IMG/VR virus record: IMGVR_UViG_648276647_000016
Coordinates: 1-34,499 of that record
Strand: one strand, 5' to 3'
Length of the DNA stretch: 34,499 nt
From: a virus
Taxonomy: Duplodnaviria; Heunggongvirae; Uroviricota; Caudoviricetes
The translations under genes and the position numbers were made by a program. Positions within the stretch are counted from its first letter, which is position 1. Each line of letters opens with the position of its first letter. The notes beneath the pieces were generated by a model that searched no databases, had not been told where the DNA came from, and saw nothing but the letters and a program-made list of their open reading frames with translations. Below, one piece after another: positions 936 to 28,303 of the stretch.

Positions 936-972
936 TTTGCAAAACGTACTGGATAGCAAACAAATTATTTGA

Positions 973-992
973 TACTGTATAAATATACAGTT
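973..992 (+). promoter_or_regulatory. LexA (SOS) box
   Basis: taCTGTATAAATATACAGtt: perfect CTGT-N8-ACAG palindrome with AT-rich centre, about 20 bp upstream of the ATG at 1012 and its GGAGAAG Shine-Dalgarno (999-1005). Confidence 0.8.
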
Positions 993-1011
993 ATTACATG
1001 GAGAAGATAAG

Positions 1012-1269
1012 ATGCAGCAGTATCACTATCCACTGGAAGACGGATTTACCGAAAGGATTCACACGCCGGGAGGCGTCAGGTCACTGGTGGAGGGATCGCA
1101 CTTGATGAAATTACTCCGGGATCTCGATAAGGATGGATTTAATGTCGATGGCCCACTTGCCGAACTGACTGCACTGATTAACTACGTCACCAGCTCGCAG
1201 ATGTCTATGCAGGATCTGCAAACACATCTCGACTATTGTGCCGAACAATTACTAAAACAAACCAGATAA
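1012..1269 (+). CDS. Small antirepressor-like protein (paralogue of the C-terminal domain of the Bro-N antirepressor), LexA-box controlled
   Basis: 85-aa ORF with good RBS. Aligns by eye to residues ~150-220 of the 1585-2280 product (IHTPGGVRSLVEGSHLMKLL..DGxxVxGxxAELT..QDLQTH vs IHSPSGVLGLTENSLLMNLL..DGHDVSGAAAELT..RDIQTH). Confidence 0.6.
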   Translation: MQQYHYPLEDGFTERIHTPGGVRSLVEGSHLMKLLRDLDKDGFNVDGPLAELTALINYVTSSQMSMQDLQTHLDYCAEQLLKQTR

Positions 1270-1272
1270 GGT

Positions 1273-1315
1273 TTGAAATTACCAAGTGGAGTGCTTATAT
1301 TTACCTTTGCGGTAA
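1273..1315 (+). promoter_or_regulatory. Sigma70-like promoter (TTGAAA-N17-TATATT) with operator palindrome TTACCTTTGCGGTAA (1301-1315) over the predicted start
   Basis: Read directly from sequence; operator matches the motif found in the immunity region. Confidence 0.5.
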
Positions 1316-1407
1316 ATTTACATCGCACTCCTCTTGTGCCATAGTAATCGGGCACTGGCAAAATCCAGTGCCGGGATTGGCGTCCCGGATTACTAAAAGG
1401 CGCATTC

Positions 1408-1427
1408 ACCGCGCAAGCGGTTTTTTT
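1408..1427 (+). terminator. Rho-independent terminator (ACCGC-GCAA-GCGGT + T7)
   Basis: 5-bp GC stem with GNRA loop followed by TTTTTTT, about 110 nt downstream of the promoter at 1273-1300. Confidence 0.55.
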
Positions 1428-1584
1428 ATGCGTATAGCACGGCCACATTCGTATTATGGTGGGCTGTGTGGGGGCACCGAAAGGTGCGCCGGGTCCTTTT
1501 AGCCGGTTACGCCAACCCTGCACAGTTCACCACCAACCGATTGGCGTCGGTAGTGGTGATTAACCAGACTAAAAGGTAACCACT

Positions 1585-2280
1585 ATGACAGCTACAAAAA
1601 GCACGTCCATTTTTTCTTTCGAATCCCAAGCCGATATACGAGTAATCGTCATTAATGGTGAGCCATGGTTTATCGCTTCAGATGTTTGTCGGGCTATAGG
1701 CATAGCAAACCATCGAGATGCTGTTCGAAAACTTGATGATGATGAGAAGGGCGTCGCTTCAACCGACACCCCTGGCGGTGAGCAAGAATCGATCATCATC
1801 TCCGAGTCAGGCCTCTACACACTGATCCTCCGCTGCCGCGATGCGGTGACACCAGGCACTATCCCCTACCGCTTTCGTAAATGGGTTACAGGTGAGGTTC
1901 TTCCTCAGATCCGCCGCACCGGAAGCTACATTAAAAACTCGCTCCCGCAGGAAGAACGCATAAAGATGGTTGCCGACCAGGTTGCCAACGCCACGGCGTC
2001 AGCAGTAATGCAGGCGATGAAGATAGAGAACAAAACCTACAGCGCCCCGCTGAAGCCAGGATACCGCAGTCTGATTCACTCGCCGTCTGGTGTTCTCGGC
2101 CTGACGGAGAACTCACTGCTGATGAATCTGCTGAACCAGTTACAGGACGACGGGCACGACGTATCGGGCGCGGCGGCGGAACTGACCACCATGTTCTGCT
2201 ACATTGTCGGTGTGAGCAAATGCCTGCGTGATATCCAGACGCACGCGGAGTACATCAACGACAAGGCAGGGTTCTTCTGA
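1585..2280 (+). CDS. Antirepressor, Bro-N domain family
   Basis: 231 aa; N-terminal region (EPWFIASDVCRAIGIAN ... ESGLYTLILRCR) matches my recollection of the Bro-N/antirepressor fold. RBS AAAAGG 8 bp upstream. Confidence 0.7.
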   Translation: MTATKSTSIFSFESQADIRVIVINGEPWFIASDVCRAIGIANHRDAVRKLDDDEKGVASTDTPGGEQESIIISESGLYTLILRCRDAVTPGTIPYRFRKWVTGEVLPQIRRTGSYIKNSLPQEERIKMVADQVANATASAVMQAMKIENKTYSAPLKPGYRSLIHSPSGVLGLTENSLLMNLLNQLQDDGHDVSGAAAELTTMFCYIVGVSKCLRDIQTHAEYINDKAGFF

Positions 2281-2341: not shown

Positions 2342-2755
2342 TTATAAAGATGACTGATATTTTACAACTCTGTTCATGGCATCTTTTTTCACCGAGCTGA
2401 TATCAGTTCTTATTTTGGCTTCGTCATTACTGCTTATCATGCTATTAATTTTTTGCACTGACATGCCGTTTCTTTCAGCCATTGCACATACAGCAGCATC
2501 GTATGAAGAACTCGCTGCGATGGATATCACCTTGTTACACTCAAACACAGCACCTTCAGCAATATCAGATGCCGATGAGGCTGGCTTGGTATAAGTCTTG
2601 ACGTAGTGATCAATACAACTATCCTTCGCCGTCTTGGCAAGAGAAAAATCCATTTTAACTTTGTCGCAATATGCCTTATCAACACCGTCATAAACATCAT
2701 AGGATGTCGAGCAAGCGGATATCAAAAATACCGATAACAGCAATAATTCCTTCAT
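2342..2755 (-). CDS. Lipoprotein, AT-rich moron (candidate superinfection-exclusion protein)
   Basis: 137 aa; N-terminus MKELLLLSVFLISAC has a hydrophobic core and lipobox ending in Cys. Gene is visibly AT-richer than its neighbours. Confidence 0.6.
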   Translation of the reverse strand: MKELLLLSVFLISACSTSYDVYDGVDKAYCDKVKMDFSLAKTAKDSCIDHYVKTYTKPASSASDIAEGAVFECNKVISIAASSSYDAAVCAMAERNGMSVQKINSMISSNDEAKIRTDISSVKKDAMNRVVKYQSSL

Positions 2756-2764
2756 TGTTGTTCC

Positions 2765-5239
2765 TTATTGCGGAGTGACATCCTGAGGTCGCCACCAGTA
2801 TGTCTGGTTAAACTCTTTCTTTGAACGTTGCTCCATTTTACGCAAATAGCCTGGTGAAAAATACTCCTGCATCTGGTTAAAGATCATGTGATCGAGAGCC
2901 GCCTTCAAGTACCAGAGATTCGCACCAGGCATCAAACCTTTCCCCAGCTTAACCAGATCACCACCAGTCTGCTCATTCTTCCCTTCCACAGCATTTAACG
3001 GTATGCCCTGAGCAATCTTCACTACGTCATCAACCAGACCAACTACCGGGCCAAGCATCGACGCTAGTGCGCCGCTCCCGTACCTGGTGTGGTCAGAGAA
3101 AAGAAAATCACCGTACAACCCTGCCCCACCACCTTTTAAAAATGCATTTATCCAGAATTTAACCATGTTGTCACCGGTCATTTCTTTTGGATTTCTCCCA
3201 TTAATAAGATCAGTAATCTGCATGGAAAGAGCACCAAGCATGGTTGTGCTTGCTAAAAACGTTGCTATATATGCTGCACGCCCACCAGCAGACGGCATCC
3301 CCATAGCTCTATGCCAGTGACGCATAACTACCGAGATAGGGAACGATTTAAACAGGAAAACACTTCTCGTTAATTCACCTTTCCATGTTCCACGCTGAAT
3401 ACCAGAACCGGTTATCAGTTGCTCACGTGCTCCCGGTGTAATAACAGCCATATCAACTTCTTCAGTTACGGCACCGAGCAGTTTACGCATTGCCTCAAAT
3501 TTCACGCGTTCAGGCTCACCAAGATGTTTAACTGCTGAATCAGGGATACGCATAATGCTTTCCGGTGTCAGCATCGTATTATTACCGTTCCCCCAGTCCT
3601 CCTGTTGCGCCAGCTTCCATACGCTCCAGTCTGTGTCAGTAATCCCTTTGCTTTTCAGGATACGAAAATCAGAGTCATCGAGGCTACGAAGGTCTGGCGT
3701 CCGTGACACTACTTCTCCCAGGCTTCCCATCATGGTTACGCCATAGGCGCGCTTGTGCGCATCTGACCATGCTGTAAGCCCACTGGCACGCATTACGGCC
3801 GTTGCCGCCCAACGAGACACTGACGGCCCCATATTATCCATCGCCCAGCGGTTAACGCTGCCAAGTAGAGATTCCATCGCCAGACCAGCGCGGCGCGCCC
3901 GCACAAGTTCTGTACGGTTCGTTGGGTCCATAGCTTCAAGCTGGTTGCGGAATAACTGGTTCATTGGAAGGTTGGTAACCTTCGCCGACAGATACATGGT
4001 TCCAAGATCAGAGAACGATGACAGCAACGCGGATCCGAGTCTGCTGGCAACCAGCCAGTTGCGGATATTGTCAGACCATCGCGCGATGTGCGGATTCGCT
4101 ACAGGCTGTGTCTTTCCGGAAATAAAGTTGTACAGATTCTCTGTGTTGTTCGCCAGCCGCTCGACTTTACCGGTTTTACTCGGGTTAGCTGTTGCCGTTT
4201 CTGCCTTCACCTGATCAAGAAGAGAGCGGAAAACATGATCGGGGTTTGGGCCATATGTTTCCACCAGTGCAATATCTTTACTGATACCTTCCAGGTGACC
4301 GACCATGATTTCCCATAGAGAGCGATCGCCATAAAGTTGCTGATATTGCAGATAGGAATCTGCATCTTTGAAATGTATCTGTCGTGATGCATTACCACGG
4401 TTAGCACGTGCGCCGGAAATTCGCATTCCGGTATCAGTAAGCTTATTCAGCCCACCAGTAGCGATCGTGTTATAAGCCTCTCCAAGAAATGCAGACAACT
4501 CAGCATCGTTCATCAGTTGTCCATCGGCTCGGGTATAATATTTGCGATCCAGCTTACCTATAACATCGCTAACCCACTTATCCTTTGATACCGCCCCAAC
4601 CTTTTCCATAGAATGATGTTGAGGGATCCCCCAGTTTTCGAGATAGCCAATGTCCCCACCAGCATCATTAAACCGGCGGCGCAGTAGCTCTGTCACTTCT
4701 CTCCACGCCTTAGCACCTTTTCTTGCTTTAGCATTGCCAGTATTTTGCCCCCGCATTTCATATACCAGGTCACGTACGCCCGCTTCATCTTCAAACAGAC
4801 CAAAAAAGCGAGGATCAACTGCTTCGAATGCCCCCTGCAATTGACTCAATGCATAATCACGGGTGGCTTTTGTTCTGGATTCAACAGAGAGGAAATTCGA
4901 TTTACCGTCTGCATTAAAAGCAATAGTACGGTTAAGAGCACCGAGTTTCCCATCAGCCCCTTGATAGCTATTGATAAATTTATCCAATCTCTGACGTGCG
5001 GCTATAGTGAGGGCCACACGACGTTTATTTAATGCCGCTTCTCGCTGTAATTCTTCAGATGCCAATTGTGCTGCTCGATATAGCCGCTCTGATTCGGAAA
5101 GTTGTCGCCACGACATCGGGTCATCACGAGCAATGGAGCGCATATTTCGATAAATGCGGTCTTCAATGTTCTGTATTTCTCGCGCCGTTAACGTGCGCTG
5201 CGCCGCCTGCTGGACCGCTTGTATACATTCCTGTCTCAT
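2765..5239 (-). CDS. Internal virion / ejection protein, large (T7 gp16-like by position and size)
   Basis: 824-aa ORF, last large gene of the late operon after two other internal-protein genes; assignment is by synteny and size, not a recalled sequence match. Confidence 0.5.
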   Translation of the reverse strand: MRQECIQAVQQAAQRTLTAREIQNIEDRIYRNMRSIARDDPMSWRQLSESERLYRAAQLASEELQREAALNKRRVALTIAARQRLDKFINSYQGADGKLGALNRTIAFNADGKSNFLSVESRTKATRDYALSQLQGAFEAVDPRFFGLFEDEAGVRDLVYEMRGQNTGNAKARKGAKAWREVTELLRRRFNDAGGDIGYLENWGIPQHHSMEKVGAVSKDKWVSDVIGKLDRKYYTRADGQLMNDAELSAFLGEAYNTIATGGLNKLTDTGMRISGARANRGNASRQIHFKDADSYLQYQQLYGDRSLWEIMVGHLEGISKDIALVETYGPNPDHVFRSLLDQVKAETATANPSKTGKVERLANNTENLYNFISGKTQPVANPHIARWSDNIRNWLVASRLGSALLSSFSDLGTMYLSAKVTNLPMNQLFRNQLEAMDPTNRTELVRARRAGLAMESLLGSVNRWAMDNMGPSVSRWAATAVMRASGLTAWSDAHKRAYGVTMMGSLGEVVSRTPDLRSLDDSDFRILKSKGITDTDWSVWKLAQQEDWGNGNNTMLTPESIMRIPDSAVKHLGEPERVKFEAMRKLLGAVTEEVDMAVITPGAREQLITGSGIQRGTWKGELTRSVFLFKSFPISVVMRHWHRAMGMPSAGGRAAYIATFLASTTMLGALSMQITDLINGRNPKEMTGDNMVKFWINAFLKGGGAGLYGDFLFSDHTRYGSGALASMLGPVVGLVDDVVKIAQGIPLNAVEGKNEQTGGDLVKLGKGLMPGANLWYLKAALDHMIFNQMQEYFSPGYLRKMEQRSKKEFNQTYWWRPQDVTPQ

Positions 5240-5244
5240 TTAAT

Positions 5245-7047
5245 TTAACCTCTCAAGAAACACGCCACAGCGACATCAAACAGGCTGGAATCCTGTATTG
5301 CCTGCTCACTTTCCCTGTTCGCTTCATCCAGTACTTCACGCGCACTGCGCGATTGTGGATTACCATCATCATCCAGCACGGTGATTATCATGTCAGGTGA
5401 TTCAAGCAGCGAGTCTTCAGCTATGCGCAGATCAATATCTCCTGCCTGATCTGACATCATTTTTTGTTCTGCCTGTTGCAATATTTTATCAGGCTCAAAA
5501 GGAGCTACTTCGTCTGGCGTCCTGACCTCTGCTGTTTTATAGAATGAAACAGCCTGAGCATTAAGTTCACTTTCTGCCTGCTGTCTCCGAGCCAGTTCTG
5601 CTCGAGCTTCAAAAAACTGACCGCCAGGCTCGTGCGGTGCCAACGCGTTACGGGAAAATTCCAGGCGTTCTTGTGCCTGCCGGATTCGTTGATCAATATC
5701 GCGAAGTCTGGCCTGTTTATCTGATCGAGCACGAGACAAAGCTTTACCGCTACCGGTTGGCTCTTCTGCAAGAATTTGTGCACGCTGTTCAGTGAGATTT
5801 TCAATAATTCGTTGGCTATTAGCGATTTCAGACTGGTAAACCTGTCTATCTCCACGCGGCAAAAGCTGCGCGGCCTGTTCTTCAAGCAACCGATTTTCTA
5901 TAGCGCGCGCCGTTACTCCATCATCTACAGATGACAGAGCCTCATTAACTGCCTGAGACAGCAGACTCTTGCGCCCAGGAATTTCACTGAAAGATGCAGA
6001 CTCAACAATGCTCGCAACGTCTACAGGTCTCCCCTGGCTAACATCAGACATGGCTTTTCGCAGAGCCTGAATGTGCGAATTACGCGAAAGCACGTTGATC
6101 GGAACGCCGGGAGCAATATCAATTTCAGCATGATGAGCGGCATTCGCCGCCAGTGCAGCATCGATATCAACTGGTGAAAAATTTGGTGCGCTTGTAGGCT
6201 CGCCGCGAGAGTTAATAAATCTGCCGACACCACCAAACGCCACCCCAAGAACAGCATCAATAGCAATTGCCTGTCGATCCAACACATCATACTGGTTAGC
6301 CATTTCGCTATAGCCACCATCACGAAGCGTTTTTGCAGTAAGCACACGCTGTGCCATACCGAACGCAATATTTGTACCTGCGGCATAGGCAATATCTGGC
6401 GTTGCACGTACTGCTGTTGCTGCGGCGCGTCGCACTGAACTTTCACCCGTCCGCGCAAGCTGAGCCGCCACACCTTCCGCCAGCGCACCGCCAGCACGTA
6501 ACCCGAGGCTCATTGGGATCAGTGTTCCGGCACCAGCAGTAATACCCTGCACTAATCCCGCTTCCTGCGCCGTCCTGAAATCAACACCCTGTGCTGTCAG
6601 CCGTTCAAACTCAGAAAAACCCTGTAGAGAAGTTACTGCCGCAGCACCTCCGACCGGACCACCGAGCGTTGTACCGACAACAGCCTGCCCGCCCATATCG
6701 AACAACCCATAAAGGACCTGCCCGGCGCTTCCGGTTGTCGCGGCATCAGGCGTCAGCCGCTTAACCTGCTGCTCTGCTAGTTTTCTCTGCTCAGCAATGT
6801 ATGAAACTGAAGTGTCATTGAGCGAGGTGTTTTCGTTAACAAACTGAGCAATCGGGGATACGATTTTATCCATCCCTGCCCATAGCAACTGATCTGGCTT
6901 TGCCACCAGCCCGGAGTACAAACCAGACAATGCCGCGCCTACAGCATTGTCGAAAAAACCAACATCGCTGTTAAAGCCAGCTGGATTTGATGCTGCTTCG
7001 TCAAGCTGCTGATTCTGGTTTACTGGATTAAGGCCAAAGTAACTCAT
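5245..7047 (-). CDS. Internal virion / ejection protein (gp15-like by position)
   Basis: 600-aa ORF, Gly/Ala-rich N-terminal half and coiled-coil-like C-terminal half; 4-nt overlap with the upstream gene. Confidence 0.5.
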   Translation of the reverse strand: MSYFGLNPVNQNQQLDEAASNPAGFNSDVGFFDNAVGAALSGLYSGLVAKPDQLLWAGMDKIVSPIAQFVNENTSLNDTSVSYIAEQRKLAEQQVKRLTPDAATTGSAGQVLYGLFDMGGQAVVGTTLGGPVGGAAAVTSLQGFSEFERLTAQGVDFRTAQEAGLVQGITAGAGTLIPMSLGLRAGGALAEGVAAQLARTGESSVRRAAATAVRATPDIAYAAGTNIAFGMAQRVLTAKTLRDGGYSEMANQYDVLDRQAIAIDAVLGVAFGGVGRFINSRGEPTSAPNFSPVDIDAALAANAAHHAEIDIAPGVPINVLSRNSHIQALRKAMSDVSQGRPVDVASIVESASFSEIPGRKSLLSQAVNEALSSVDDGVTARAIENRLLEEQAAQLLPRGDRQVYQSEIANSQRIIENLTEQRAQILAEEPTGSGKALSRARSDKQARLRDIDQRIRQAQERLEFSRNALAPHEPGGQFFEARAELARRQQAESELNAQAVSFYKTAEVRTPDEVAPFEPDKILQQAEQKMMSDQAGDIDLRIAEDSLLESPDMIITVLDDDGNPQSRSAREVLDEANRESEQAIQDSSLFDVAVACFLRG

Positions 7048-9557
7048 TGCGGAATATCTCCGGAGAATCTCTGACGTTTCTGTGTCAGATTAAGAACAAC
7101 GGGAGAACCATCATCTTTCAGCAGATAACCAGTACCAAGTTTCACCAGGTACTGACTATCGCCGTAACTTTGCAAACCATACTGACCAGGCGGTGTTTTT
7201 ATCCCGGAGCCGACTACTTGTTCATTCCAAGCCTGATTAATCTGCTTATCGAATTGCTCTGCAGACATTCCCCACGGCAAAAGGACATTCCCCATTCCGT
7301 TATAGTCATGCACGCCACCTGTAGCTACGTTAACAGCCTGTTTCCAGACATCATTGTCAATTTCGCCTGATACCACGCCTTTTTTCGCCATCACACCAGC
7401 GTAATAATCCTTTGCGATCTCGTATGCCATTGATGCCCCCTGAGCGTCACCAGCAAATGCATCCTTCACCATGTCAGAAAACTCAAGGCGAAGATCAGCA
7501 TCTTTAGGCATCGGAATACCTTTCGCATCATCAGTACCTTTACGAGCCGCCGCGCCAGCAAGAATTGTCTGCGCAGCGGTTTCAGGAGACACGGAAACAT
7601 CCGGATTAAACCAGTTTTTTTCTGCCAAAATACCACCAGGCTTATCCATCAGTATCCCGGCAACGGCAGCAGATGGAGCGTTGGCACTGATCTGCTGTAG
7701 TGCTGACATATACACCTGCCCACCACCAGTGCTCTGCCTGATGGTATCGAGATATGCTGCCTGTTGGGAAACTGGAGCATCACGAAAGAAAACACCGATC
7801 TGATTGGCCTCGTCTTTGGAAAAGAACGTCAGTGGAGTGCCATATGACTTAGCAAGATCACTGACCTGAGCGGCACGCAAGGCAACGCTCTGTCCAAAGT
7901 TATCCTTATTGCTCATGTCGATAGGCTTTGCCTGTCCGGAGGCAAGAGAGAACTGCACAGGATCCGACTGCCGCTGCTTTATCACCTGATTTGCAGCCGA
8001 AACAACGTTGTCATAAAGAGCTGCGCGTGCCGCATACCCCTCCCCTGTCTCACCAGTATCCGGGCGTAATTGCTCAACATATGCTGTAATGCTGCTTGTC
8101 GGCATGTTGCGGAAAGAGCCTATATACTGTCCGGCGATCTGTGTATTTCTGAACTCGGTATATCGCAGGTTTCCTTCTCTGACGCCATAAGCTGCAATAA
8201 AATCATCCTCACCAGGTGGGTTAGGGAATTCAACGCCACGCATATACGCAGCCGTCGCATCGCGAACCTGGCTGTCAATCATCGTTTTATATTCAGCCTG
8301 CTGCTGCCGACGCAGTTGATCCGCCTGTCGCATAAAACTTGCCTGCGCCTCAGGAGATGCCGCATCGAATGCTGCATTACCGGTATAGCGTTTGGTGTTG
8401 GTTGGAATTGTTGATAAACCAAGTGCTGCACTGACACCAGCAGTTAACTGCTGATCACTGTATGGCTGGTTACCGTTCTCATGATGGATAATGGCTGCAC
8501 AAAGCGCCTTCAGGGTATCAGGATTAGATGCATCGAGAGGATCATCAGCAGAAACGCCAAGTTGTTCGCACACTGCTTTGATATACGACATAGTATCATT
8601 TTTATCAGTAGGCGGTGCCCAGCGATTAATTATCTCGCTGACGGTATCAATACCCTGCCTCTGATACGACATCAGGTTTCGCCCTAATGCACGAATCCCG
8701 TGTTCAGGTGTTTCGAATTTAGCAAATCGACCATCATCACCGGTCTGGCCTACCCACGGATTAGTTTTGCTGTATTCGAGATTTCCTGGGTTATTGTTGC
8801 GTATGCCACGGGCACGCTCGGAAGAGTCACTATCTGCTACAGCACGGCGAGCTCCAGCAGCAGTATCACTTAACTCGCCATTACTTTGGATGAATGCGGT
8901 CGCATTGTTTGCCGACCACTGGGACAATGCGGCATCAGCAACCTTCTCTTTAAACTCGATTTTCTTGGCCTGGATTTGCTCGTCGCTCCAGCCATGCGCA
9001 ATGCCGTAATCCTCAATTTGCTGGAAAGTTTGCTTATTAGCCAATACGTATGCGGCATTGTCGCCATACAATGCTGCGGCATTTTTACCATTATTCAGCA
9101 GCGTCGCCTGAAACTGACCTTCTTCGTAGGCATTAATTTGCCCTATCTCGTGCCGCCCGGCCTGCGTAGTGAACTGAATGCGCTGCTGCTGTGCCTGCTG
9201 CATGAAAGCATTACGGGCCTGTTCATCCGGCAGCGACATAGCCAGTTGCTCGATCTGGGCATCAAACTGCTGCGTATACTCCTGACCTTTTCCAATAGCA
9301 TTTTTCCCTTTCAGGTTAAGCAAACCTGTTTCAGGGTTATTCAGCAGATCGCTGCTTATCTGGCTTAAGCTAAGAGAAGCATCCTGAGCCATAGCAACAT
9401 TCGCACGCTGTTTTGCCTGCGCAATAATACCTGCATATTGCTCTGCAACATCGCCAAGTACATCACCGACATTTGGTGTCTGAAACGATGAGAATCCCTG
9501 CGTCGAAATCCCTCTGCTTTGAACCTGACGGCCCGATGTTGTTGGTACAACTGGCAT
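7044..9557 (-). CDS. Internal virion protein with a putative cell-wall-degrading domain
   Basis: 837-aa ORF; contains GIRNNNPGNLEYSKTNPWVGQ...FAKFETPEHGIRALGRNL, a motif I associate with virion-associated muralytic domains of podovirus internal proteins (from memory, unverified). Confidence 0.5.
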   Translation of the reverse strand: MPVVPTTSGRQVQSRGISTQGFSSFQTPNVGDVLGDVAEQYAGIIAQAKQRANVAMAQDASLSLSQISSDLLNNPETGLLNLKGKNAIGKGQEYTQQFDAQIEQLAMSLPDEQARNAFMQQAQQQRIQFTTQAGRHEIGQINAYEEGQFQATLLNNGKNAAALYGDNAAYVLANKQTFQQIEDYGIAHGWSDEQIQAKKIEFKEKVADAALSQWSANNATAFIQSNGELSDTAAGARRAVADSDSSERARGIRNNNPGNLEYSKTNPWVGQTGDDGRFAKFETPEHGIRALGRNLMSYQRQGIDTVSEIINRWAPPTDKNDTMSYIKAVCEQLGVSADDPLDASNPDTLKALCAAIIHHENGNQPYSDQQLTAGVSAALGLSTIPTNTKRYTGNAAFDAASPEAQASFMRQADQLRRQQQAEYKTMIDSQVRDATAAYMRGVEFPNPPGEDDFIAAYGVREGNLRYTEFRNTQIAGQYIGSFRNMPTSSITAYVEQLRPDTGETGEGYAARAALYDNVVSAANQVIKQRQSDPVQFSLASGQAKPIDMSNKDNFGQSVALRAAQVSDLAKSYGTPLTFFSKDEANQIGVFFRDAPVSQQAAYLDTIRQSTGGGQVYMSALQQISANAPSAAVAGILMDKPGGILAEKNWFNPDVSVSPETAAQTILAGAAARKGTDDAKGIPMPKDADLRLEFSDMVKDAFAGDAQGASMAYEIAKDYYAGVMAKKGVVSGEIDNDVWKQAVNVATGGVHDYNGMGNVLLPWGMSAEQFDKQINQAWNEQVVGSGIKTPPGQYGLQSYGDSQYLVKLGTGYLLKDDGSPVVLNLTQKRQRFSGDIPQ

Positions 9558-14821: not shown

Positions 14822-14841
14822 GTGGGTCTGTTACGACCCAC
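14822..14841 (-). other. Intergenic stem-loop (GTGGGTC-TGTTAC-GACCCAC) between capsid and decoration genes
   Basis: Perfect 7-bp stem, no U-tract; likely an RNA stability or processing element. Confidence 0.35.
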
Positions 14842-14857
14842 AGGTTAATAACAGGCG

Positions 14858-19266: not shown

Positions 19267-19464
19267 GAATCACGCCTAAGGACCGTGATGCCAGAAGTTC
19301 CAGGGGCTTGGCGGTGATGGTTTCCCTTGAAGGACTATCACCGCCCTTTTTACAGCAGGACGCCATTGCGATGACTTCATGCTGTAAACCAGTACAGCCA
19401 CGGAAGGCATAACTCATTGCTTCCAGTTCGCCCGGTTCGCCGGGCATTTTTTTAAGGTGAGATT

Positions 19465-27333: not shown

Positions 27334-27564
27334 TCATGAGTAGAAGAAGTATGCCAGTTCTGCTTTTGAGCGCAGCCATTGTCTTGTTTTACAGGCTTTA
27401 AAAAGCCCATTCATCAATACCTTACCTGGCATTTTGCGCTTACCTGTTAAGTGAGTCTGGATATAGTGACTCGTCGTTCCGGCTTCCTGTGCGAAGGCTT
27501 CACGCTCATCCGGAGTAAGTGCAAGCCAGTGCTTTTTGAAATCGAAATGTCCGTTATCGCTCAT
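27334..27564 (-). CDS. Cro-like HTH regulator (YdaS/Cro-type)
   Basis: 76 aa with an HTH-like segment (EAFAQEAGTTSHYIQTHLTGKRKMP); divergent from the repressor gene. Confidence 0.6.
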   Translation of the reverse strand: MSDNGHFDFKKHWLALTPDEREAFAQEAGTTSHYIQTHLTGKRKMPGKVLMNGLFKACKTRQWLRSKAELAYFFYS

Positions 27565-27600: not shown

Positions 27601-27663
27601 TCACCCATAAGGTAACAAAAATCAAGGATAGTTACCTATGGGGTGCATTTACCTGTTGGGTAA
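27601..27663. promoter_or_regulatory. OR-like operator cluster: TCACCCATAAGGTAA (27601-27615), TTACCTATGGGGTGC (27632-27646), TTACCTGTTGGGTAA (27649-27663)
   Basis: Three copies of the TTACC-N5-GGTAA palindrome in the 154-bp divergent intergenic region between the cro-like and repressor genes. Confidence 0.6.
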
Positions 27664-27718: not shown

Positions 27719-28303
27719 ATGAAAAGTATCCAGGACGTCCGCAGGCAAAATCTCAACGACTTGATCGACCGTGAATTCAATGGTGTTCAGACGCGGATGG
27801 CAGAAAAACTTGGAACTCAGGCAAATCTGGTAAACCGCTGGGCTCTTGGCAAGAAGGTTATCGGCGACCAGGTTGCTCGAAAAATTGAAGCTGCCGCCAA
27901 TAAACCCCGTAACTGGCTTGATATCGATCGCTCGCTTTCTCATGAAGGTTTTCAGCCTGTCGGCCCAAGCGACATTGGTCAGCTGGCGGCTCACAACCTG
28001 GAACGCTGGATGAGCGAAAGCCGCGACCTTTCAACGCAGGGAAAACTTCACCGCGCATCCGGCGTCGCCCAGGTGACAATCAGCCGCCTGTTAAACAATG
28101 AGGTCAGCGTTTCCATTTCCACCCTGGAGAATGTTGCATCCGCATTCGGGCGTCACGGATATGAACTACTGATTCACCCGCACGACCCTGCGACTATCAA
28201 CTATGACCGCTCGCGCTACGCATTGTTACCCGAAACCGAGAAAGCAAAGATTGAAAGTTACATTGAATTTGTCATCAACCAGAACGAAAAAAGCAAACAA
28301 TAA
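27719..28303 (+). CDS. Prophage immunity repressor, tandem HTH domains, no S24 peptidase domain
   Basis: 194 aa with two XRE-like HTH segments (QTRMAEKLGTQANLVNRW and LHRASGVAQVTISRLLN); no Ala-Gly/Ser-Lys autocleavage module; divergent from cro and followed by a terminator. Confidence 0.65.
   Translation: MKSIQDVRRQNLNDLIDREFNGVQTRMAEKLGTQANLVNRWALGKKVIGDQVARKIEAAANKPRNWLDIDRSLSHEGFQPVGPSDIGQLAAHNLERWMSESRDLSTQGKLHRASGVAQVTISRLLNNEVSVSISTLENVASAFGRHGYELLIHPHDPATINYDRSRYALLPETEKAKIESYIEFVINQNEKSKQ

Follow-up and report, generated by a model that had tools for sequence, protein, structure and literature searches.

The region described here is 95-98% identical to the Escherichia phages TL-2011b, phiV10 and vB_EcoP_ZX5 (ZX5 below), which belong to the genus Uetakevirus of epsilon15-like podophages, and judged by this similarity the window, by which we mean the whole stretch of 34,499 nucleotides that was analysed, is an epsilon15/phiV10-like prophage of that genus. 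A gene for a protein of 85 aa, called ant here, lies on the plus strand at 1012-1269. It is flanked on one side by the tail-fibre gene (367-816) and on the other by the large virion structural genes (2765-9557), all of them on the minus strand and thus opposite to ant. The placement of ant in Salmonella phage SPC32H, divergent from the tailspike gene and with virion structural genes on the other side, recurs in the window. The left end is occupied by an IS903 element (1-381) that is 92% identical to the copy in phage P7 and truncates the tail-fibre gene after codon 149. Because the tail-fibre gene is broken, the module described below may in this host belong to a defective prophage, one that may be incapable of making infectious particles.

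Results

The 85-aa antirepressor

The 85-aa protein matched chain E of PDB entry 5D50, the 'Anti-repressor protein' of phage SPC32H, over residues 2-84 (E=4.3e-46), and it is 86.7% identical (tblastn) to the product of the SPC32H gene annotated ant (SPC32H_020). Homology to SPC32H Ant extends along the full length of the protein, and ant of the window is regarded as its orthologue. PHROG 450 also matched (E=1.1e-46), and a Pfam match to DUF724 was discarded as noise (17 bits, cutoff 38). The counterparts of the ORF in phiV10 (p24) and epsilon15 (gp19) are each annotated as "hypothetical". When a phage collection was searched with Ant by tblastn, only 35 records matched, all from phages of enterobacterial hosts, and those that were fetched belonged to Uetakevirus.

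The LexA box and the ant promoter

The sequence CTGTATAAATATACAG, the CTGT-N8-ACAG core of a near-consensus LexA box, is located at 975-990 upstream of ant. The full 20-mer TACTGTATAAATATACAGTT (973-992) shares 18 of its 20 bases with TACTGTATATATATACAGTA, the consensus for LexA of E. coli, and is the sole site in the window with at most three mismatches to that consensus; the chance expectation for such a site, from 100 dinucleotide-preserving shuffles, was 0.00. The loose pattern CTGT-N8-ACAG by itself occurs three times in the window against 0.75 expected, which is not significant, and the strength of the LexA box therefore rests on the full 20-mer. The occurrences at 14828-14843 and 19382-19397 have G+C-rich spacers and their number is within chance, and both are probably unrelated to LexA. 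From the end of the box there are 21 bp to the ATG of ant and 157 bp to that of the tail-fibre gene. The Shine-Dalgarno sequence of ant is GGAGA (1000-1004, plus strand), of which GGAG (1000-1003) lies 8 nt 5' of the ATG. An earlier note, made from the same DNA, had described a textbook SOS box about 20 bp before an 85-aa gene with a strong ribosome-binding site, and had placed this gene between the ejection-protein and tail-fibre genes; the match to the consensus, the spacing, the GGAG and the positions of the flanking genes bear out both descriptions.

The spacer between the tail-fibre gene and ant was aligned for seven phages, namely the window phage, phiV10, TL-2011b, SPC32H, epsilon15, Enterobacter phage Tyrion and Klebsiella phage BUCT711. 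The LexA box is conserved in all seven amid flanks that are to a large extent variable. No position of its right arm differs between the phages, and in the left arm most positions are constant too, with one change in BUCT711. The GGAG of the Shine-Dalgarno sequence is also invariant. The SPC32H genome contains exactly one LexA-like site, which lies 20 bp upstream of its ant gene.

At the LexA box, a scan for the sigma-70 consensus gave no canonical promoter, and the hexamers of the ant promoter were therefore assigned by analogy with the p95 promoter of coliphage 186 and with Gifsy-2. In p95 the annotated -10, TACTGT, is formed by the opening six bases of the LexA box. Gifsy-2 is arranged in the same way, and there TTGAAT precedes the TACTGT by 17 bp. 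In the window the putative -10, TACTGT (973-978, plus strand), likewise consists of the first six bases of the box, and 17 bp upstream of it lies a putative -35, TGGATA (950-955, plus strand), which overlaps a CTGGA.A block (949-953, 955) that is invariant across the seven phages. If the analogy holds, LexA bound to the box would lie across the -10 and the transcription start of ant.

The repressor and its putative operators

The immunity repressor gene rep (27719-28303, plus strand) encodes a protein of 194 aa, the presumed target of Ant. This protein matched chain A of 5D50, 'Repressor', over residues 1-190, which include the C-terminal part (E=5.1e-42), and the separately crystallised C-terminal fragment 5D4Z matched residues 89-190 (E=3.5e-20). 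As the 85-aa protein matches 5D50_E and the 194-aa protein 5D50_A, both partners of the crystallised antirepressor-repressor complex are, by homology, present in the window. Pfam identified HTH_3 and a YdaS-like HTH in Rep and no Peptidase_S24, and NCBIfam and PHROGs yielded only HTH or regulator families. The window thus encodes a Rep homologue that has the C-terminal tetramerisation and Ant-binding domain and no recognisable S24 protease domain, in agreement with the earlier description of this repressor as one without an S24 autocleavage domain. The rep region is 97.7% identical at the DNA level to the repressor region of ZX5. Rep is about half identical to SPC32H Rep, as roughly estimated from the 5D50_A alignment, and binding of Ant to Rep in the window phage is therefore an extrapolation.

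A cro-like HTH ORF of 76 aa (27334-27564, minus strand) is divergent from rep, and the 154-bp spacer between the two contains three putative Rep operators (27601-27663), recognised by a palindrome motif. The rep/cro-like region with its three palindromes constitutes the actual genetic switch. Across the whole genome the 15-bp palindrome, TTACC-N5-GGTAA, shows about 15-fold enrichment and stands mostly in intergenic spacers; for the pattern TTACC-N5-GGTRA, with at most one mismatch allowed, the window has 30 strand-matches where 2.08 were expected. Sites lie at 921, 1301, 18853, 21980, 21998, 25257, 25319, 27264, 27601, 27632, 27649, 28361 and 28423, and two sites of the TTACC-N5-GGTRA pattern are immediately downstream of rep. 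Two putative operators are close to ant. One of them, TTACCTTTCAGGTGA (921-935), is situated in the tail-fibre/ant spacer and is conserved in the seven-phage alignment, and its counterpart is marked as a 'repressor' site in the epsilon15 annotation. The other, TTACCTTTGCGGTAA (1301-1315), is a perfect palindrome that shares base 1301 with the -10 of a predicted promoter downstream of ant, and resembles Op51 of P1.

The palindrome is likewise enriched in SPC32H (18 matches, 0.65 expected) and stands there at syntenic places, with the same three-operator layout between rep and the cro-like gene. From centre to centre, the palindrome in the ant/tailspike spacer is 54.5 bp from the LexA box in the window and in SPC32H alike. 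Their distribution indicates that the TTACC-N5-GGTAA palindromes are probably Rep operators. Because the palindromes are spread genome-wide, in a pattern that is syntenic in SPC32H, the data also suggest that Rep controls many promoters beyond the switch region.

The C4/Bro-N unit downstream of ant

Directly downstream of ant and on the same strand lies what its sequence features identify as an immI unit of the P1/N15 type without an icd-like ORF. A sigma-70 promoter, TTGAAA-17-TATATT (1273-1301, plus strand), was predicted purely from its 10/12 match to the consensus. It is followed by an isrK-like leader (1339-1427, plus strand), in which the Rfam isrK model scored 77.9 bits (1352-1427) and overlapped a c4-a1b1 match of 45.1 bits (1339-1391). 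The leader carries the a1 and b1 targets of C4, TTGGCGT at 1377 and CTAAAAGG at 1393, both of which are complementary to C4, as well as an intrinsic terminator (1408-1427, plus strand). The C4 antisense RNA itself (1452-1537, plus strand; Rfam RF01695) reached 77.7 bits where the gathering score is 45, and its predicted fold is stable, with an energy of -45.6 kcal/mol (z=-4.7). A second pair of targets on the plus strand, a2 (TTGGCGT, 1541-1547) and b2 (CTAAAAGG, 1569-1576), is exactly complementary to C4 segments 1509-1515 and 1495-1502, which are unpaired in the C4 fold, and b2 overlies the Shine-Dalgarno sequence of the Bro-N gene, 8 nt before the ATG at 1585. A C4 match above the gathering score and duplicated targets, the distal one on the ribosome site, are the traits of a P1-type immI; no icd-like ORF was found between C4 and the Bro-N gene, where the gap from C4 (ending at 1537) to the ATG (1585) measures just 47 bp. 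The location of ant had previously been called immI-like, and with a C4 antisense RNA and a Bro-N antirepressor directly downstream this term applies more literally than was claimed.

The gene whose ribosome site C4 would mask (1585-2280, plus strand) encodes a second antirepressor of 231 aa, composed of a Bro-N domain and an Ant-like C-terminal domain. The N-terminal part matched Pfam Bro-N (E=2.3e-21), a stretch at residues 150-223 shows 42% identity to the small Ant (E=2e-15), and the protein was assigned to PHROG 130, 'anti-repressor Ant', with PHROG 450 matching residues 148-229. By this similarity the C-terminal domain of the Bro-N protein is a paralogue of Ant. No Pfam model covers the C-terminal 80 residues of the Bro-N protein, and PHROGs 130 and 1760 ('anti-repressor') carry that domain at the C-terminus; judged from this placement, the Ant-like domain may be what binds the repressor in a broader group of Bro-N antirepressors.

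phiV10, TL-2011b and Tyrion carry the C4/Bro-N unit, whereas SPC32H, epsilon15 and BUCT711 lack it. From this pattern the LexA-ant unit is the conserved core and the C4/Bro-N unit is accessory. The scan of the window with up to three mismatches found no LexA box belonging to the Bro-N gene. At the DNA level this gene is about 98% identical to ORF4 of ZX5, whose overexpression, according to the ZX5 study, the one experimental paper on an E. coli relative, lowered the prophage titre 1000-fold, gave fewer lysogens and reduced repressor transcription by 75%. The Bro-N protein was the sole antirepressor tested in that study, in which LexA and SPC32H are unmentioned.

Some further observations concern the surroundings of the unit. 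Many of 165 matching phage records, among which Stx-converting phages (about 100) prevail, contain a 200-bp segment with about 81% identity to the isrK/C4 stretch (about 1358-1560). Unrelated lambdoid phages therefore share this RNA control unit with the window phage. In TL-2011b (positions 4280-5368 and 7277-8221), an insertion of about 1.1 kb separates ant from the isrK/C4 element, and nearby lie a toxin gene of the YafO family and a gene that is the third to be annotated 'anti-repressor Ant'; this slot is a hotspot for accessory genes. In the window, the Bro-N gene is followed by an ORF of 137 aa (2342-2755, minus strand) with a lipoprotein-like signal (LLSVFLISAC), in a slot where phiV10 and SPC32H carry a membrane protein of 46 aa. 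This ORF could be a moron or a superinfection-exclusion gene.

Discussion

Taken together, our results make it highly probable (about 0.86) that the region is an SOS-induction module, in which a LexA-repressed Ant inactivates a non-cleavable Rep. In the lysogen, host LexA bound at 973-992 would cover the probable -10 (TACTGT) and the start site and so keep ant off. Upon DNA damage, RecA would be activated, LexA would cleave itself and the 85-aa Ant would be made. Ant would then bind the 194-aa Rep, which is predicted to be incapable of self-cleavage, and strip it from the TTACC-N5-GGTAA operators, by which the lytic genes would be turned on. By homology with SPC32H, an Ant tetramer would grip the C-terminal domains of two Rep dimers and split the DNA-binding Rep tetramer. 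The earlier note had likewise proposed SOS induction through a LexA-repressed antirepressor and not through self-cleavage of the repressor, and the SPC32H homologues of Ant and Rep, the conserved box and the lack of an S24 match support this proposal.

The closest precedent, as judged by homology, is the Ant/Rep/LexA system of SPC32H (PDB 5D50, 5D4Z), and the mechanism is already known in the genus Uetakevirus, since it has been characterised genetically and structurally in that phage. The system was described by Kim and Ryu in 2013 (J Virol) and by Kim et al. in 2016 (PNAS), and later publications summarise it as follows. According to a review that cites Kim and Ryu 2013, self-cleavage of LexA in SPC32H leads to the production of Ant, which inhibits the repressor by protein-protein binding (PMC7380047). 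An Ant tetramer of SPC32H engages a pair of Rep dimers and takes apart the Rep tetramer (PMC9638917), and the C-terminal tetramerisation domain of Rep doubles as the Ant-binding surface (PMC9986798). The window phage belongs to the same genus as SPC32H, and the likeness extends from the 86.7% identity of Ant and the homology of Rep over its whole length to the position of ant, divergent from the tailspike gene, the single LexA box about 20 bp upstream and the TTACC-N5-GGTAA palindromes in the same layout. The two phages differ in that Rep has diverged far more than Ant (to about half identity, an estimate), and in that SPC32H is without the isrK/C4 RNA and the Bro-N antirepressor that follow ant in the window. 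Further differences are that the host of the window phage is E. coli and that its tail-fibre gene is interrupted by IS903.

Tum of coliphage 186 and the antirepressors of the Gifsy prophages, which the earlier note had named as precedents, follow the same regulatory logic but are not homologous to Ant. The BLASTP alignment with Tum had an E value of 0.061 over 46 residues, in the DinI-like half of Tum, and Pfam found no DinI domain in the 85-aa Ant. Tum is also a LexA-repressed antirepressor whose gene stands apart from the immunity region and whose target repressor is non-cleavable, and in 186 TACTGT serves at once as the -10 and as the left half of the LexA box, as proposed here for ant. Unlike Ant, Tum has 146 aa with a DinI-like half, and its gene is beside replication genes and not tail genes. 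For Gifsy-2, the 73-codon ORF after dinI was taken as gftA, as inferred from the description of Lemire et al. 2011 (PMC3121763), and no alignment with Ant was obtained; tblastn of the phage collection, which includes Gifsy-2, gave no Gifsy match for Ant. GfoA, GftA and GfhA of Gifsy-1, -2 and -3 are small LexA-controlled antirepressors that bind non-cleavable repressors (PMC3121763), and their LexA-box promoter is similar to that proposed for ant; in contrast to the window, the Gifsy antirepressor comes after a dinI homologue. The Gifsy repressor-antirepressor complex was reported as A2B2 (PMC3121763), whereas that of SPC32H is reportedly a hetero-octamer (PMC9638917).

The downstream unit resembles immI of P1 (c4-icd-ant) and immA of N15 in its C4 RNA, its duplicated a and b targets with b2 over the ribosome site, its antirepressor gene and the putative repressor operator at its predicted promoter. 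It differs from P1 immI in being without an icd-like ORF and in having as its antirepressor a fusion of Bro-N with an Ant domain. N15 combines the LexA-controlled antC with a small-RNA-controlled anti-immunity operon, and the window phage also pairs a LexA-controlled antirepressor with such an RNA-controlled unit. However, the two loci are separate in N15, whereas in the window phage the units are adjacent and their proteins have a domain in common. In phage P22, the antirepressor region immI (mnt-arc-ant) lies between the ejection-protein genes and the tailspike gene, and ant of the window has the same position. Unlike the gene in the window, P22 ant is under the control of Mnt and Arc and not of LexA, and the c2 repressor is RecA-cleavable (PMC7380047).

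Three other explanations were weighed against the SOS-induction module. Foremost among them, the main inducer in the E. coli phages might be the 231-aa Bro-N antirepressor, the 85-aa protein being an accessory such as a modulator that enters mixed oligomers via the common domain. The homologous domain of the two proteins (42% identity), the reported tetramer of SPC32H Ant (PMC9638917) and the effects of ZX5 ORF4 overexpression, with the titre lowered 1000-fold and repressor transcription by 75%, are in line with this. However, the Bro-N gene is placed under C4 RNA and is without its own LexA box. In P1 and N15, such an arrangement is said to serve anti-immunity and not SOS induction. Furthermore, SPC32H, epsilon15 and BUCT711 keep LexA-ant alone without the Bro-N unit, and SPC32H is cited in the review as a case of induction via LexA-controlled Ant (PMC7380047), all of which makes a Bro-N inducer quite improbable.

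The location of the box within a divergent intergenic region, where the consensus scan called no promoter, would also suit a box that serves the tail-fibre gene, or a chance palindrome, with the 85-aa gene being SOS-independent. But the distance to the ATG is 21 bp for ant against 157 bp for the tail-fibre gene, a site with 18 of 20 consensus positions had an expectation of 0.00, and the box is kept in seven phages, at the same place in SPC32H, so that we give this explanation very little credence. Self-cleavage of Rep stimulated by RecA as in lambda, which would make Ant dispensable, is hardly credible either; no point in its support was found in the analysis, the family searches of Rep returned HTH or regulator families without Peptidase_S24, and a Rep homologue has been crystallised in complex with Ant.

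Beyond the SOS-induction module itself, the LexA-ant and C4/Bro-N units might be functionally coupled, via C4 titration and mixed Ant/Bro-N oligomers on Rep, a view which we put forward tentatively and consider unlikely. Between the stop codon of ant and the isrK-like leader no terminator was found, and transcripts that start at the ant promoter under SOS conditions would therefore carry extra a1/b1 decoys; by read-through they would also carry the Bro-N mRNA. The decoys could titrate C4 and thereby unlock the second antirepressor, and the Ant-like domain of the Bro-N protein might then form mixed oligomers with the small Ant on Rep. If such coupling is true, one locus would feed DNA damage and an RNA-based immunity signal into a single repressor-binding fold.

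The ant locus was found in 529 of 5426 complete E. coli genomes (about 10%). Its product carries the PGAP label "hypothetical protein" in 12 of 12 records among the matches listed, neither Pfam nor NCBIfam has a model for the 85-aa Ant, and its PHROG is labelled "unknown function". Since the mechanism is already established, the value of our finding is practical and lies in this annotation gap. With the SPC32H annotation transferred to them, these prophages, among them prophages of O157 and O103 strains, would be predicted to undergo SOS induction driven by LexA and Ant and not by repressor cleavage. The adjacent unit, with its Bro-N::Ant-domain fusion, also shows the Ant fold in a second use, as the C-terminal part of larger "Ant" proteins, and so gives a hint of where these proteins touch the repressor.
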